Source: Octopus vulgaris (Eukaryota). Taken from it: DNA of 64,000 nt. How positions within the stretch are numbered: the first letter of the stretch is position 1; each line of letters opens with the position of its first letter. Shown here piece after piece: positions 49,119 through 62,267 of this stretch. The notes below the pieces were generated by a model. It was not told the origin of the DNA and searched no databases. It was given only the letters and a program-made list of their open reading frames with translations. The position numbers and the translations under genes were made by a program. Location: assembly GCA_951406725.2 (NCBI GenBank), contig OX597836.1, forward strand, positions 16,058,001 through 16,122,000, written 5' to 3'.

Positions 49119-49324
49119 AAATTAATAAATAAAACATATGCATATATACATACATATATGTACGTACCTACCTCTACATGTATATATACATGCATATATG
49201 GGTACAGGACACACAAAAAAAAAAAGCGTTGAACACAATGAGAAACGAAAACATAAACACAAAACCAAGGAAATGGACATTTCTTTTAAACAACGAAAAA
49301 ATAGAGTACAGGACATACAAAACA

Positions 49325-49425
49325 AGGAAAATTCCCCTTCTTCAGTCGCCTTAGTTTCATCTACTCCACGTTTCGAAGGTCAAGGCGATACATGACTTCA
49401 ATAAAACTTTCCTTCCCGTGAAAAT
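49325..49425 (-). ncRNA. Permuted/pseudoknotted hammerhead-like RNA (element X)
   Basis: GAAGG..AGUUUUAU..CAUGUA^UCGCCUU..CCUUC-GAAA-CGUG..AUGAAACU-AAGGCGA-CUGAAGA. Confidence 0.6.
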
Positions 49426-49737
49426 CAAATTAAATAAAATTTGAGATTTTTTTGCGGAGGGGTAAAAATGGTAACAAAAACAGGACAGTAACGACAGTAT
49501 ATATATATATATGTTTTTTTTGTTTTTTGTTTTTCCAGTTTCAGCTCTTGAGCTGTGGCCATGCTGGGGCACCGCCATTGTGGTGAAAGAGTACAGCAGG
49601 GATCACCACCCCCTGCCGGAGCCTCGTAGAGCTTTTAGGTGTTTTCGCTCAATAAACACACACAACGCCCGGTCTGAGAATCGAAACCGCGATCCTGCGA
49701 CCGCGAGTCCGCTGCCCTAACCACTAGGCCATTGCGC

Positions 49738-53257: not shown

Positions 53258-53303
53258 AACACAACCTTTCGGCTGATATATCCTCCAGCCTTCTTCAGGT
53301 GTC
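53258..53303 (-). ncRNA. Minimal type I hammerhead candidate
   Basis: GACAC-CUGAAGA-A-GGCUG(loop)CAGCC-GAAA-GG-UU-GUGUU. Confidence 0.65.
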
Positions 53304-54893: not shown

Positions 54894-57800
54894 TATGTAT
54901 AAAGCTGAAATGTGAAAAAGTTGTTTGATTTCTTGGTTGTTTGTCTCATATATATATATAATGCGTATATATGTACATATGTATTTAATGCGTATGTATA
55001 TATATATAATGTGTGCATATGTGGTCGGATTGAGCTGAAAATATGCAAACCTATGTTAAAAGTGCTGGCGAGTTTGCAAGGCAACTTTGAGTTTGCTCAA
55101 CTGAAAGGCGTGGCCTCTAGAGCAAAATTCTTCATCTTTTAAAATGTGGTCCGAGTAGACCCGAATGAAATCGGTTTATAATAACCAAACAAGTAAAATA
55201 AGCAACAAAAAAAAAAAAATCTTTGCCATTTTAATCACGAGGAAAGCCGGGTATCTTTGTAAGTCTACTATATATTTGTGAAAAGGTGGTGAGCTGGCAG
55301 AAACGTTAGCACGCCGGGCGAAATTCGTAGCCGTATTTCGTCTGCCGCTACGTTCTGAGTTCAAATTCCACCGAGGTCGACTTTACCTTTCATCCTTTTG
55401 GGGTCGATAAATTAAGTACCAGTTACGCACTGGGGTCGATGTAATCGACTTAATACCTTTGTCTGTCCTTGTTTGTCCCTTCTGTGTTTAGCCCCTTGTG
55501 GGTAGTAAAGAAATAGGTATTTCGTCTGCTGCTACGTTCTGAGTTCAAATTCCGCCGAGGTCGACTTTGCCTTTCATCCTTTCGGGGTCGATAAATTAAG
55601 TACCAGTTACGCACTGGGTCGATGTAATCGACTTAATACCTTTGTCTGTCCTTGTTTGTCCCTTCTGTGTTTAGCCCCTTGTGGGTAGTAAAGAAATAGG
55701 TATTTCGTCTGCTGCTACGTTCTGAGTTCAAATTCCGCCGAGGTCGACTTTGCCTTTCATCCTTTTGGGGTCGATAAATTAAGTACCAGTTACGCACTGG
55801 GTCGATGTAATCGACTTAATACCTTTGTCTGTCCTTGTTTGTCCCTTCTGTGTTTAGCCCCTTGTGGGTAGTAAAGAAATAGGTATTTCGTCTGCTGCTA
55901 CGTTCTGAGTTCAAATTCCACCGAGGTCGACTTTACCTTTCATCCTTTTGGGGTCGATAAATTAAGTACCAGTTACGCACTGGGGTCGATGTAATCGACT
56001 TAATACCTTTGTCTGTCCTTGTTTGTCCCTTCTGTGTTTAGCCCCTTGTGGGTAGTAAAGAAATAGGTATTTCGTCTGCTGCTACGTTCTGAGTTCAAAT
56101 TCCACCGAGGTCGACTTTACCTTTCATCCTTTTGGGGTCGATAAATTAAGTACCAGTTACGCACTGGGGTCGATGTAATCGACTTAATACCTTTGTCTGT
56201 CCTTGTTTGTCCCTTCTGTGTTTAGCCCCTTGTGGGTAGTAAAGAAATAGGTATTTCGTCTGCTGCTACGTTCTGAGTTTAATTTCCACCGAGGTCGACT
56301 TTACCTTTCATCCTTTTGGGGTCGATAAATTAAGTACCAGTTACGCACTGGGGTCGATGTAATCGACTTAATACCTTTGTCTGTCCTTGTTTGTCCCTTC
56401 TGTGTTTAGCCCCTTGTGGGTAGTAAAGAAATAGGTATTTCGTCTGCTGCTACGTTCTGAGTTCAAATTCCGCCGAGGTCGACTTTGCCTTTCATCCTTT
56501 TGGGGTCGATAAATTAAGTACCAGTTACGCACTGGGTCGATGTAATCGACTTAATACCTTTGTCTGTCCTTGTTTGTCCCTTCTGTGTTTAGCCCCTTGT
56601 GGGTAGTAAAGAAATAGGTATTTCGTCTGCTGCTACGTTCTGAGTTCAAATTCCACCGAGGTCGACTTTACCTTTCATCCTTTTGGGGTCGATAAATTAA
56701 GTACCAGTTACGCACTGGGGTCGATGTAATCGACTTAATACCTTTGTCTGTCCTTGTTTGTCCCTTCTGTGTTTAGCCCCTTGTGGGTAGTAAAGAAATA
56801 GGTATTTCGTCTGCTGCTACGTTCTGAGTTCAAATTCCGCCGAGGTCGACTTTACCTTTCATCCTTTTGGGGTCGATAAATTAAGTACCAGTTACGCACT
56901 GGGTCGATGTAATCGACTTAATACCTTTGTCTGTCCTTGTTTGTCCCTTCTGTGTTTAGCCCCTTGTGGGTAGTAAAGAAATAGGTATTTCGTCTGCTGC
57001 TACGTTCTGAGTTCAAATTCCACCGAGGTCGACTTTACCTTTCATCCTTTTGGGGTCGATAAATTAAGTACCAGTTACGCACTGGGTCGATGTAATCGAC
57101 TTAATACCTTTGTCTGTCCTTGTTTGTCCCTTCTGTGTTTAGCCCCTTGTGGGTAGTAAAGAAATAGGTATTTCGTCTGCTGCTACGTTCTGAGTTCAAA
57201 TTCCGCCGAGGTCGACTTTACCTTTCATCCTTTTGGGGTCGATAAATTAAGTACCAGTTACGCACTGGGGTCGGTGTAATCGACTTAATCCGTTTGTCTG
57301 TCCTTGTTTGTCCCTTCTGTGTTTAGCCCCTTGTGGGTAGTAAAGAAATAGGTATTTCGTCTGCTGCTACGTTCTGAGTTCAAATTCCGCCGAGGTCGAC
57401 TTTGCCTTTCATCCTTTCGGGGTCGATAAATTAAGTACCAGTTACGCACTGGGTCGATGTAATCGACTTAATACCTTTGTCTGTCCTTGTTTGTCCCTTC
57501 TGTGTTTAGCCCCTTGTGGGTAGTAAAGAAATAGGTATTTCGTCTGCTGCTACGTTCTGAGTTCAAATTCCGCCGAGGTCGACTTTGCCTTTCATCCTTT
57601 TGGGGTCGATAAATTAAGTACCAGTTACGCACTGGGTCGATGTAATCGACTTAATACCTTTGTCTGTCCTTGTTTGTCCCTTCTGTGTTTAGCCCCTTGT
57701 GGGTAGTAAAGAAATAGGTATTTCGTCTGCTGCTACGTTCTGAGTTCAAATTCCACCGAGGTCGACTTTACCTTTCATCCTTTTGGGGTCGATAAATTAA

Positions 57801-59486
57801 GTACCAGTTACGCACTGGGTCGATGTAATCGACTTAATACCTTTGTCTGTCCTTGTTTGTCCCTTCTGTGTTTAGCCCCTTGTGGGTAGTAAAGAAATAG
57901 GTATTTCGTCTGCTGCTACGTTCTGAGTTCAAATTCCACCGAGGTCGACTTTACCTTTCATCCTTTTGGGGTCGATAAATTAAGTACCAGTTACGCACTG
58001 GGGTCGATGTAATCGACTTAATACCTTTGTCTGTCCTTGTTTGTCCCTTCTGTGTTTAGCCCCTTGTGGGTAGTAAAGAAATAGGTATTTCGTCTGCTGC
58101 TACGTTCTGAGTTTAATTTCCACCGAGGTCGACTTTACCTTTCATCCTTTTGGGGTCGATAAATTAAGTACCAGTTACGCACTGGGGTCGATGTAATCGA
58201 CTTAATACCTTTGTCTGTCCTTGTTTGTCCCTTCTGTGTTTAGCCCCTTGTGGGTAGTAAAGAAATAGGTATTTCGTCTGCTGCTACGTTCTGAGTTCAA
58301 ATTCCGCCGAGGTCGACTTTGCCTTTCATCCTTTTGGGGTCGATAAATTAAGTACCAGTTACGCACTGGGTCGATGTAATCGACTTAATACCTTTGTCTG
58401 TCCTTGTTTGTCCCTTCTGTGTTTAGCCCCTTGTGGGTAGTAAAGAAATAGGTATTTCGTCTGCTGCTACGTTCTGAGTTCAAATTCCACCGAGGTCGAC
58501 TTTACCTTTCATCCTTTTGGGGTCGATAAATTAAGTACCAGTTACGCACTGGGGTCGATGTAATCGACTTAATACCTTTGTCTGTCCTTGTTTGTCCCTT
58601 CTGTGTTTAGCCCCTTGTGGGTAGTAAAGAAATAGGTATTTCGTCTGCTGCTACGTTCTGAGTTCAAATTCCGCCGAGGTCGACTTTACCTTTCATCCTT
58701 TTGGGGTCGATAAATTAAGTACCAGTTACGCACTGGGTCGATGTAATCGACTTAATACCTTTGTCTGTCCTTGTTTGTCCCTTCTGTGTTTAGCCCCTTG
58801 TGGGTAGTAAAGAAATAGGTATTTCGTCTGCTGCTACGTTCTGAGTTCAAATTCCACCGAGGTCGACTTTACCTTTCATCCTTTTGGGGTCGATAAATTA
58901 AGTACCAGTTACGCACTGGGTCGATGTAATCGACTTAATACCTTTGTCTGTCCTTGTTTGTCCCTTCTGTGTTTAGCCCCTTGTGGGTAGTAAAGAAATA
59001 GGTATTTCGTCTGCTGCTACGTTCTGAGTTCAAATTCCGCCGAGGTCGACTTTACCTTTCATCCTTTTGGGGTCGATAAATTAAGTACCAGTTACGCACT
59101 GGGGTCGATGTAATCGACTTAATCCGTTTGTCTGTCCTTGTTTGTCCCTTCTGTGTTTAGCCCCTTGTGGGTAGTAAAGAAATATATATATTTGTGAAAA
59201 GGACGGACGTTGTCTTACAAGCAGTTGTGCTGGCAAAGGTGTTAGTAAGTGTGGTCGGATTGAGCCGAAAATTTGCTGAAACAGTCTCAGAGACTGTTTA
59301 AACATTTGGCATGTTTTTTTTTCATTACCAATTTTTAATAAAATTTTCATTTTTTTAAAAAATTCCTAATTTTTAAAATGTGGTCCGAGTAGACCCGAAT
59401 GAAATCGGGTTCTAATACCGACACAAGTAAAACAATAAAGAAACTATGCTATTTTAATCCCGAGCAAGGCCGGGTTTTCTCTGCTA

Positions 59487-59628: not shown

Positions 59629-60098
59629 AATACAAAATGGGATAAGAACGCAAAACATCCAGACAGTTAGGTAATACAAGAAAGGGACAACAAAACATCC
59701 AGATGGACGATACAAGGAAACAAGGACGGGCCATTCAGAGTTTTTTTTCTCAGTCGAGTTCCAGATTATCTTTGCAATTTCGGCTGGTTATACTCGAGAT
59801 TGCTCCAATCTGGCCAGCCCCAAGGAAAAACTAAGCTAAGAGCATTAGATTCTTTGGAAGAAAGTAGTGAATGTATACTTTTGTATAAATTCGCTGCTTT
59901 CTTCCAAGGAATCTAATGCTCTTAGCTTAGTTTTTCCTTGGGGCTGGCCAGATTGGAGCAATCTCAAGAATGATCAGCCGAAATTGCAAAGATAATCTGG
60001 TATTTGGCTGAAGAAAGAAAACTCCGAATGACCCATCTTTGTTTCTTTGTATCGTCTATCTAGATGTTTTGCGTTCTTGTCCCATTTCCCATTTTGTG
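59629..60098. mobile_element. Head-to-head inverted pair of PLE pseudo-LTR-like sequences in (TA)n
   Basis: ~220-bp imperfect arms with a TTTT centre at 59879-59882. Confidence 0.8.
59929..60023 (+). ncRNA. Permuted/pseudoknotted hammerhead-like RNA with k-turn (element Y; second copy on - strand at 59739-59833)
   Basis: GGCUGG-CCAGAUU-GGA-GCAAUC^UCAAG..UCAGCC-GAAA-UUGC-AAA-GAU-AAUCUGG..UUUGG-CUGAAGA. Confidence 0.65.
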
Positions 60099-60706
60099 TT
60101 TATATATATATATATCCCTTATATCCTTCTTAAAGTAGTACTTATTCCGTCGGTTTCTTATGTCACCCAGCTATGTTACGGGTACGTAAACAACCAAACA
60201 CCGGTTGTCAAAGTGGTGGGCGGGATAAACACAGGGACGCACACACACACAAACTATATATATATATATATATATACACGACGGGCTTCCACATAGTTTC
60301 TGCCGATCAGTTTCACTCACAAGACATTGGTCGGCCCGGGGGTAGTACAAGAAATTTATACTTGCCCTAGTACCGCGAGGTGGAACTGAAACCGAACCTA
60401 CGTGGTTTCGATGTGATCGCCTTCACTACCAAGCCATACCTACGGCTATTACTCTTTTACTTTTTTACTTGTTTGCACTCTTTTTACTTGTTTCAGTCAT
60501 TTGACTGTGGCCATACTGGAGCACCGCCTTTTAGTCGAGCAAATCGACCCCAGGACTTATTCTTTTGTAAGCCTAGTACTTATTCTATCGGTCTGTTTTG
60601 CCGAACCGCTACGTTACGGGGACGTAAACACACACCAGCATCAGTTGTCAAGCGATGTAGGGAGGACAAACACAGACACACAAACACACAAACTCACACA
60701 CGCACA

Positions 60707-62027: not shown

Positions 62028-62250
62028 GGGCGGCGAGCTGGCATAAACGTTAGCACGCCGGGCGAAGTGCGTAGCCGTATTTCGTCTGCCGTTACGTTCT
62101 GGGTTCAAATTCCGCCGAGGTCAACTTTGCCTTTCATCCTCGATAAAATAAGTGCCAGTTACGCACTGGGGTCGATATAATCGACTTAGTCCGTTTGTCT
62201 GTCCTTGTTTGTCCCTTCTGTGTTTAGCCCCTTGTGGGTAGTAAAGAAAA
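62028..62250 (+). mobile_element. SINE-A
   Basis: Homology. Confidence 0.9.
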
Positions 62251-62267
62251 ATATACACACACATACA

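Follow-up and report, generated by a model that had tools for sequence, protein, structure and literature searches.

The RNA of the repeat element that we call Y, a copy of which lies at positions 59929-60023 on the + strand of the window analysed here (64,000 nucleotides of Octopus vulgaris DNA; GenBank assembly GCA_951406725.2, contig OX597836.1, positions 16,058,001 to 16,122,000), is predicted to fold as a self-cleaving hammerhead whose blocks run in reversed order, whose catalytic core is opened between A9 and G10.1 and held by two outer helices, and whose cut would fall after 59963. We assign this reading a probability of about 0.8. The reversed order by itself is known; the splitting of the core at A9/G10.1, with an enclosing helix (P0) and a hairpin (Pa), appears to be new. 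A first-pass annotation had described Y as a pseudoknotted hammerhead fold of reversed order carried by Penelope-like repeats, a view that our analysis bears out, and had taken the reversed topology as such to be undescribed, which it is not: types SGC and CSG have been published and their cleavage shown (PMC10085705). Our analysis argues for a true conserved RNA fold that most likely acts like a hammerhead and that departs from the intact block of every described type.

Y (59929-60023) belongs to an inverted repeat pair (59691-60071) whose arms are 88% identical and which has (TA)n on its flanks. Its + arm (59884-60100) is a 5'-truncated, non-coding repeat copy ending in a (TA)n run, and its - arm (59632-59880) is an inverted, 5'-truncated copy placed head-to-head with the first. 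All the Y segments named in the first-pass annotation lie on the + strand where they had been placed, although the span proposed there, 59929-60023, leaves out P0 and Pa (59888-59941), which make up the structure's 5' half. As had also been noted, the core of the - arm lacks one base and reads CUGAGAA (59753-59747); its predicted cut lies between 59798 and 59797. The + arm has the full core, with CUGANGA, GAAA and the NUH triplet all present, yet its stem I, in which one mismatch accompanies two G·U pairs, is weak, with a folding energy of only -0.9 kcal/mol. Contigs of four sequencing runs that we guess to be RNA contain the Y family, and in four of four they differ from the window at 60003 and 60007; they reveal no position at which molecules start or stop. 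Scanning the whole window with Rfam at gathering score gave no match. Elsewhere in the window, two motifs resembling ordinary minimal type I hammerheads, each with an A inserted after A9, were recognized by eye on the - strand at 53298 and 45592, the five stem II pairs of the former being identical to those of Y, and a tandem array of some 21-22 near-identical units of 183/184 bases occupies 55249-59217, with more pieces near 62029-62255.

The hammerhead blocks of Y are ordered S (stem III, UH, stem I), G (II', GAAA, III') and C (I', CUGANGA), and the chain is open inside the core between A9 and G10.1, where P0 and Pa form the bridge. Along the + strand the proposed elements would thus run P0, Pa, II, P4, a bend, III, the cut, I, a short linker, II', GAAA, III', the bend again, P4', I', CUGANGA and P0'. 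P0b, an outer extension of the enclosing helix, has its 5' strand at 59888-59893 (partner 60025-60030; 91.6% of cells paired) and P0 has its own at 59896-59903, the partner being the strand after CUGAAGA. The Pa hairpin (59904-59941) runs with its last base directly into G10.1, where the stem II strand begins (59942-59947; 93.9% paired), detached from A9. Next come the 5' strand of P4 (59948-59954), the counterpart of the helix through which stems I and II interact in type SGC, and the GGA (3n, 2n, 1n; 59955-59957) that would make up the non-bulged strand of a kink-turn. Block S (59958-59963) holds the stem III strand (59958-59962), U16.1 and C17 (59963), with the predicted cut after the last; the stem I strand 3' of the cut (59964-59970) and a three-base linker (59971-59973) lead into block G (59974-59987), composed of II' (59974-59979), GAAA (59980-59983) and III' (59983-59987). 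The putative kink-turn bulge L1-L3 (59988-59990) and G1b, A2b and U3b (GAU, 59991-59993; together 59988-59993) precede the 3' strand of P4 (59994-60000), which pairs in Y copies. Stem I' (60001-60007, weakened in the window copy) and CUGAAGA (60008-60014) occupy 60001-60014, and the 3' strands of P0 (60015-60022) and P0b (60025-60030) close the structure at 60015-60030.

The cut site after 59963 predicted in the first-pass annotation is correct by analogy, and the triplet preceding the cut reads AUC in 54, AUA in 7 and AUU in 3 of 64 Y copies. G10.1-C11.1 is G-C in 35 of 38 copies, A15.1-U16.1 is U-A in 38 of 38, and the helices are 85-98% paired. Y has none of the block orders of types I, II and III (CGS, GSC and SCG, with a core free of pseudoknots), its own order being S, G, C. 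With type SGC it has in common this order, the three-base linker between stems I and II (59971-59973) and the far-end helix P4; the SGC trait of a chain starting with block S and carrying the whole of block C at its 3' end is absent, the stem II strand and P4 lying 5' of block S and P0 following A9. When an intact block C was sought, with a stem II strand 0-2 bases past A9, at most two pairs were possible in 81 of 81 Y copies. Y can be pictured as a type SGC ring whose usual ends would be joined, in Y through the kink-turn, and which would be reopened within the core. Stacking of P0 on Pa would put A9 beside G10.1, and the two outer helices would hold the opened core together. Two other ways of completing the core were considered and set aside. 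A minimal type I hammerhead running downstream from CUGAAGA has GAAU at the GAAA position and lacks a stem I partner, and splicing that would join A9 to the G10.1 of the next unit finds no GU after CUGANGA (81 of 81 copies) and, in most copies, no AG before the stem II strand.

Pairing was assessed on 38 of the 46 full-length Y copies; the alignment omits one mis-cut row, L153, which carries an internal duplication, and six further copies that either are near-duplicates or have small deletions. Over 49 pairs and 1,854 cells, 92.2% are paired, and all slid-partner controls are paired at 50% or less. Two-sided change affects 15 of the 49 pairs and 54 cells, against 9.0 pairs and 21.6 cells in shuffles, none of 500 shuffles being as high, a count that is not a probability given that the Y copies are related and descend from a few masters. 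The two-sided pairs fall in stem I (4/7), P4 (4/7), P0 (3/6), Pa (3/12) and P0b (1/6), those of stem I including an A-U/U-A swap in nine copies. Within the 38 Y copies no pair of stem II (0/6) or stem III (0/5) changes on both sides, but stem II takes other letters in the three further families described below. The earlier case for covariation in stem I between the two arms holds in part. The G-C to A-U change is a true subfamily difference (5 of 38 copies) that sits on a CpG site and is weak alone, so that the case rests on other pairs; the two 'wobble-preserving' changes of the + arm look like decay of the window copy, U-G at pair 1.1 being found in 1 of the 38 aligned copies and the run contigs differing at 60003 and 60007. 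When the L147/L177 subfamily is compared with L176/L182, the alignable part is limited to 80 bases at the start of the unit and 65 at its end, which make up the predicted ribozyme.

With a method that cannot draw pseudoknots, the nested minimum-energy fold of 59925-60030 is a different structure (z -0.58), and a longer nested fold, likewise drawn without pseudoknots, retains P0, P0b and Pa and loses the core, preferring other local hairpins. The expectation that descriptor matches would exceed a shuffled background was borne out: 400 kb of arbitrarily chosen genome held two matches, both Y-related (helix sums 22 and 24), and no further family, against one weak match (sum below 20) when that sequence was shuffled ten times (4 Mb). 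We note that the search anchors required the core pattern, so that conservation of CUGANGA is not independent evidence.

The kink-turn that had been read into Y is sequence-perfect against the consensus. A closing C-G pair, a three-base bulge, G·A and A·G are all found in Y and in a second family, N, which carries the same motif with U·U. On the bulged side of Y, -1b is C, 1b is G and 2b is A in 81 of 81 copies, L1 and L3 taking all four letters; on the other strand (n=64) 3n is G in 57, 2n is G in 60, 1n is A in 63 and -1n is G in 60. The four exceptions at 2n come from a single young Y subfamily with U (L153, L179-L181, L194 and L195), whose units are 96-97% identical and have a duplicated piece in Pa; U at 2n is known from Kt-23 (PMC2790904). 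A kink-turn is not common to all carriers of the wiring, families X and Z having, by eye, an AGUA/GAA loop and a four-base A bulge, respectively, in its place. Since X and Z bend otherwise, the kink-turn appears, from the sequences, to be one solution for the bend and not a defining part. A G at 3n allows kink-turns to take up their fold with metal ions only (PMC4382518), and Y, with U·G at 3b·3n, should by that rule do so without protein. The earlier suggestion of modulation by an L7Ae-family protein such as Snu13 fares poorly here, with that U·G in Y and with X, Z and several published Naiad tails bending otherwise, and we regard Snu13 control of Y as unsupported.

X, Z and N fit the wiring of Y with different helix sequences. 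Element X, a family unrelated to Y, lies on the - strand at approximately 49150-49480, with CUGAAGA at 49345-49339 and a predicted cut between 49389 and 49388; that its helix order is common to Y had been recognized in the first-pass annotation and is upheld. It yielded 3,440 candidates, stems II and III are intact in 21 of 24 copies, and its P0 is short. Family Z was a descriptor find in a flank (L019:560-780, on the - strand, and L061-L080); it yielded 1,034 candidates, with stems II and III intact in 13 of 19 copies. Family N was found with a motif of 19 bases from the published Naiad_Obim tail, which has 327 exact matches in the genome against 0 for a control, and keeps 6-7 pairs in stem II and 5 in stem III in 8 of 15 copies. 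An intact block C would have one pair in 13 of 13 Z copies and at most two in 14 of 15 N copies. X permits an ordinary four-pair stem II after CUGANGA (20 of 21 copies) and, because of this, does not alone tell a split core from an unsplit one. By eye, the P0 5' strand of X could also pair with the start of its stem II strand (49411-49460, - strand), a possible inactive alternative fold.

Three families that are not otherwise related have in common a CACGTGA-type motif, which precedes GAAA by 215-390 bases at 10 of 13 loci checked (Y: L176, L179, L182, L014 and L156; X: L043 and L045; Z: L062, L071 and L073). We take this motif to be E-box-like, and it is possibly an internal promoter.

The link to Naiads, a group of Penelope-like elements, comes from the published consensus sequences. 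Naiads have been reported to lack a canonical hammerhead, and eight of them, including Naiad_Ovul, are marked 'HHR_half_core', with the other half 35-50 bases away (PMC8557442). We read these consensus sequences by eye, covering 58 of 62 CTGATGA places and, for three alternative spellings of the core, 10 places each out of 43, 23 and 25, a reading that falls short of a systematic tally. The tails of Naiad_Obim and Naiad_Ovul clearly show the split wiring, complete with P0 and Pa and with the kink-turn, and so do one record of part 19, one record after the Naiad-1_Movir header and three nearly identical records that stand with the coral entries, several records being read without a header of their own. 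Five passages, four of them among nematode records, read as unsplit type CSG, and two fit poorly, one having only two stem I pairs and the other remaining unparsed. The core segments of family Z are, by eye, almost identical to those of the record after the Naiad-1_Movir header, among the box jellyfish entries, with P4, P0 and Pa differing; the likeness may reflect deep conservation or horizontal transfer. No reading frame was found within 1.5 kb upstream of 15 N copies, so that the Naiad link rests on the published consensus, and no sequence likeness was seen between the Y and N tails.

Y-type repeats carrying the predicted scrambled hammerhead would number about ten thousand copies in the genome, as estimated from 9,785 matches to a pattern spanning GAAA to CUGANGA against a single match for the reversed control; a DNA search with Y gave 2,393 first-look candidates. 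Copies of an RNA cut after C17 would begin at the C17 bond, and Y offers a clean case for mapping such starts because its triplet is mostly AUC, whereas in X, Z and N the triplet has a final UA, which overlaps (TA)n. Among copies joined to (TA)n, 62 distinct places were counted by hand in the first 100 of 318 rows, and 35 of them start at the predicted cut. Nine of the remaining places have one extra T, four have four upstream bases, two start one base later and eight are ambiguous; another four keep 1-3 upstream bases, which corresponds to a matched site two bases upstream with equal or better AT overlap (35 versus 4, binomial p 3e-7). Reverse-strand counts with one anchor and one row per place came to 112 for gaps of at most 30, to 497 for gaps of at most 44 and to 623 for gaps of at most 60. 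Junctions per base, from an anchor that misses the window's own subfamily, amount to 27.5 at 0 to +13, a bin containing an AT-rich linker that favours (TA)n joins and many junctions at +5 to +10; to 3.6 at +14 to +44; and to 7.9 at -16 to -1, a bin that exceeds the downstream background and includes cut-site joins with spacer bases. One copy, L180, begins at the cut and continues through one entire unit of 855 bases. The pile-up of starts thus points to a template RNA whose 5' end would lie at the predicted bond, without telling what made that end.

Penelope hammerheads have been proposed to cut precursors into monomers that may circularise (PMC4209133), and Penelope-like enzymes to initiate within the RNA (PMC11167929); the units and copies seen here fit both. 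The length of a tandem Y unit, in seven cases, is 699-855 bases, and Y copies end near a TA-rich patch some 130-140 bases 3' of the cut. Y shows insertion traits of the Penelope-like, Naiad type, namely (TA)n targets, an inverted 5'-truncated neighbour and partial tandem copies. Other Penelope-like clades likewise target (TA)n. Y and Naiads have the fold and these insertion habits in common, and no Y copy is tied to a reverse transcriptase gene; none of the seven units has the one long frame, with N-terminal GIY-YIG and RT, of an autonomous Naiad, their longest stop-free stretches being 89-163 codons. We propose that tandem Y RNA would be cut to monomers of 699-855 bases and that a reverse transcriptase acting in trans, most likely from a Naiad, would prime near the TA-rich patch. 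On cut, linear RNA, copying would stop at the cut and leave many short copies starting there; on uncut or circularised RNA it would run on and give longer and tandem copies. The longest X copy starts with sequence resembling its own tail, as expected for a copy of more than one unit. We infer the three-dimensional fold and the cleavage of Y, as we do its circles and its partner enzyme.

Three other accounts of these data deserve consideration. The helices may be real and activity may require two copies, in tandem or apart, that swap strands to form a dimer, a single copy being inactive. Minimal hammerheads of Penelope-like elements are believed to work as dimers (PMC4209133), units of Y are found in tandem and a monomer requires several crossing helices; stem III of Y, by contrast, is neither short nor palindromic, its 5-6 pairs being extended by P4, and SGC RNAs whose helices cross in the same way have been published as cleaving when a construct holds one copy (PMC10085705). 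We consider a dimer improbable, if the best placed of the three. Slightly less probable still is that Y retains, from a former hammerhead, a conserved signal that no longer cleaves, such as a binding or template-switch site for a reverse transcriptase, the pile-up of start positions then being due to AT microhomology, to the start of transcription or to a different nuclease. The core is indeed broken where catalysis needs A9 beside G10.1, Naiads are reported without canonical hammerheads (PMC8557442) and the many junctions at +5 to +10 fall in the AT-rich linker. Against this, the step in start positions lies within two bases of the predicted bond (35 versus 4), and NUH, GAAA and A15.1-U16.1 are retained in four families with the triplets AUC, AUA, AUU and GUA.

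Very unlikely, finally, is the arrangement favoured in part by the first-pass annotation, in which an AGUUUU/AAAACU helix would bring A9 to stem II and Snu13/L7Ae bound to the kink-turn would switch folding on; a milder version takes the helix as an alternative, switching state. The helix can form in 92.5% of cells, and the kink-turn consensus is present in Y and N, the U·U of N being like that of box C/D. It shows no covariation, however, 320 of 500 shuffles being as high; the helix is worth -2.1 kcal/mol against -8.5 for P0 with P0b and competes with both P0 and Pa; and X and Z are without a kink-turn, while G at 3n predicts folding free of protein (PMC4382518).

Set in a wider frame, we think it likely, with less assurance than the fold and cut of Y itself, that this is a seventh natural hammerhead wiring. 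A helix junction would close a reversed ring opened within its catalytic strand, and the RNA would work as a monomer, would have been retained from cnidarians to octopus and would constitute the missing ribozyme of Naiads and of large non-coding circular-RNA elements, with the genome recording in-vivo cleavage at base resolution. If so, the rule against interrupting the hammerhead's CUGANGA block would no longer hold, the wiring would lie beyond the six permutations counted in 2023, and reversed hammerheads, so far a matter of environmental RNA, would enter the realm of animal genomes, in about ten thousand copies. Such a wiring would also explain why Naiads seemingly thrive without a ribozyme, descriptors being blind to a split core. 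The helix junction at A9/G10.1 would lend itself to conformational switching, and a kink-turn or bulge between stem III and P4 offers a possible answer to the geometric puzzle that Eckert et al. raised for type SGC (PMC10085705).

We found no description of the split-core wiring in the literature searched, although the supplements of PMC10085705 and of a 2026 preprint (bioRxiv 10.64898/2026.07.22.740005) could bear on the matter, and no precedent, in the literature examined, for two helices inserted in block C. Eckert et al. (2023, PMC10085705) assumed that at most 1-2 bases can be inserted in that block. One inserted base between 9 and 10.1 is conserved in minimal Penelope hammerheads (PMC4209133), which indicates that this position tolerates some insertion. 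The main text of PMC10085705 does not mention the strings octopus, mollus, kink or k-turn, nor does the available text of the preprint mention SGC, kink, octopus or cephalopod.

Among known systems, type SGC (HRIMA-1 and variants) comes closest, with the cyclic order S-G-C, a linker of about three bases between stems I and II, a far-end helix (P4 in Y), a pseudoknotted core and the same predicted cut, type SGC and type CSG RNAs cleaving at a site analogous to that of Y (PMC10085705). In type SGC, however, a stem II strand directly follows CUGANGA, whereas in Y block C is broken at A9/G10.1 and the SGC ends would be joined through the bend between P4 and stem III; type SGC is known from metatranscriptomes and Y from thousands of copies in an animal genome. 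Type CSG, of which the same source gives two natural sequences, has the reversed ring of Y opened elsewhere, with block C intact and neither P0 nor Pa. Minimal type I hammerheads of Penelope-like elements (PMC4209133) and non-LTR retrozymes (bioRxiv 10.64898/2026.07.22.740005) resemble Y as hammerheads in Penelope-like or non-autonomous repeats, for which cleavage into monomers and the use of circles as templates have been proposed; they differ in their normal order, short palindromic stem III and single base at 9/10.1. Naiads (Craig et al. 2021, PMC8557442) have in common with Y their (TA)n targets, inverted 5'-truncated neighbours and partial tandems; the Naiad paper, in the parts available, gives no fold and no canonical hammerhead, and Y for its part has no reading frame of note. 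The standard kink-turn (PMC4382518, PMC2790904), lastly, is like that of Y in having G·A and A·G after a three-base bulge, the putative kink-turn of Y being distinguished by its place, which would be between stem III of a ribozyme and P4.
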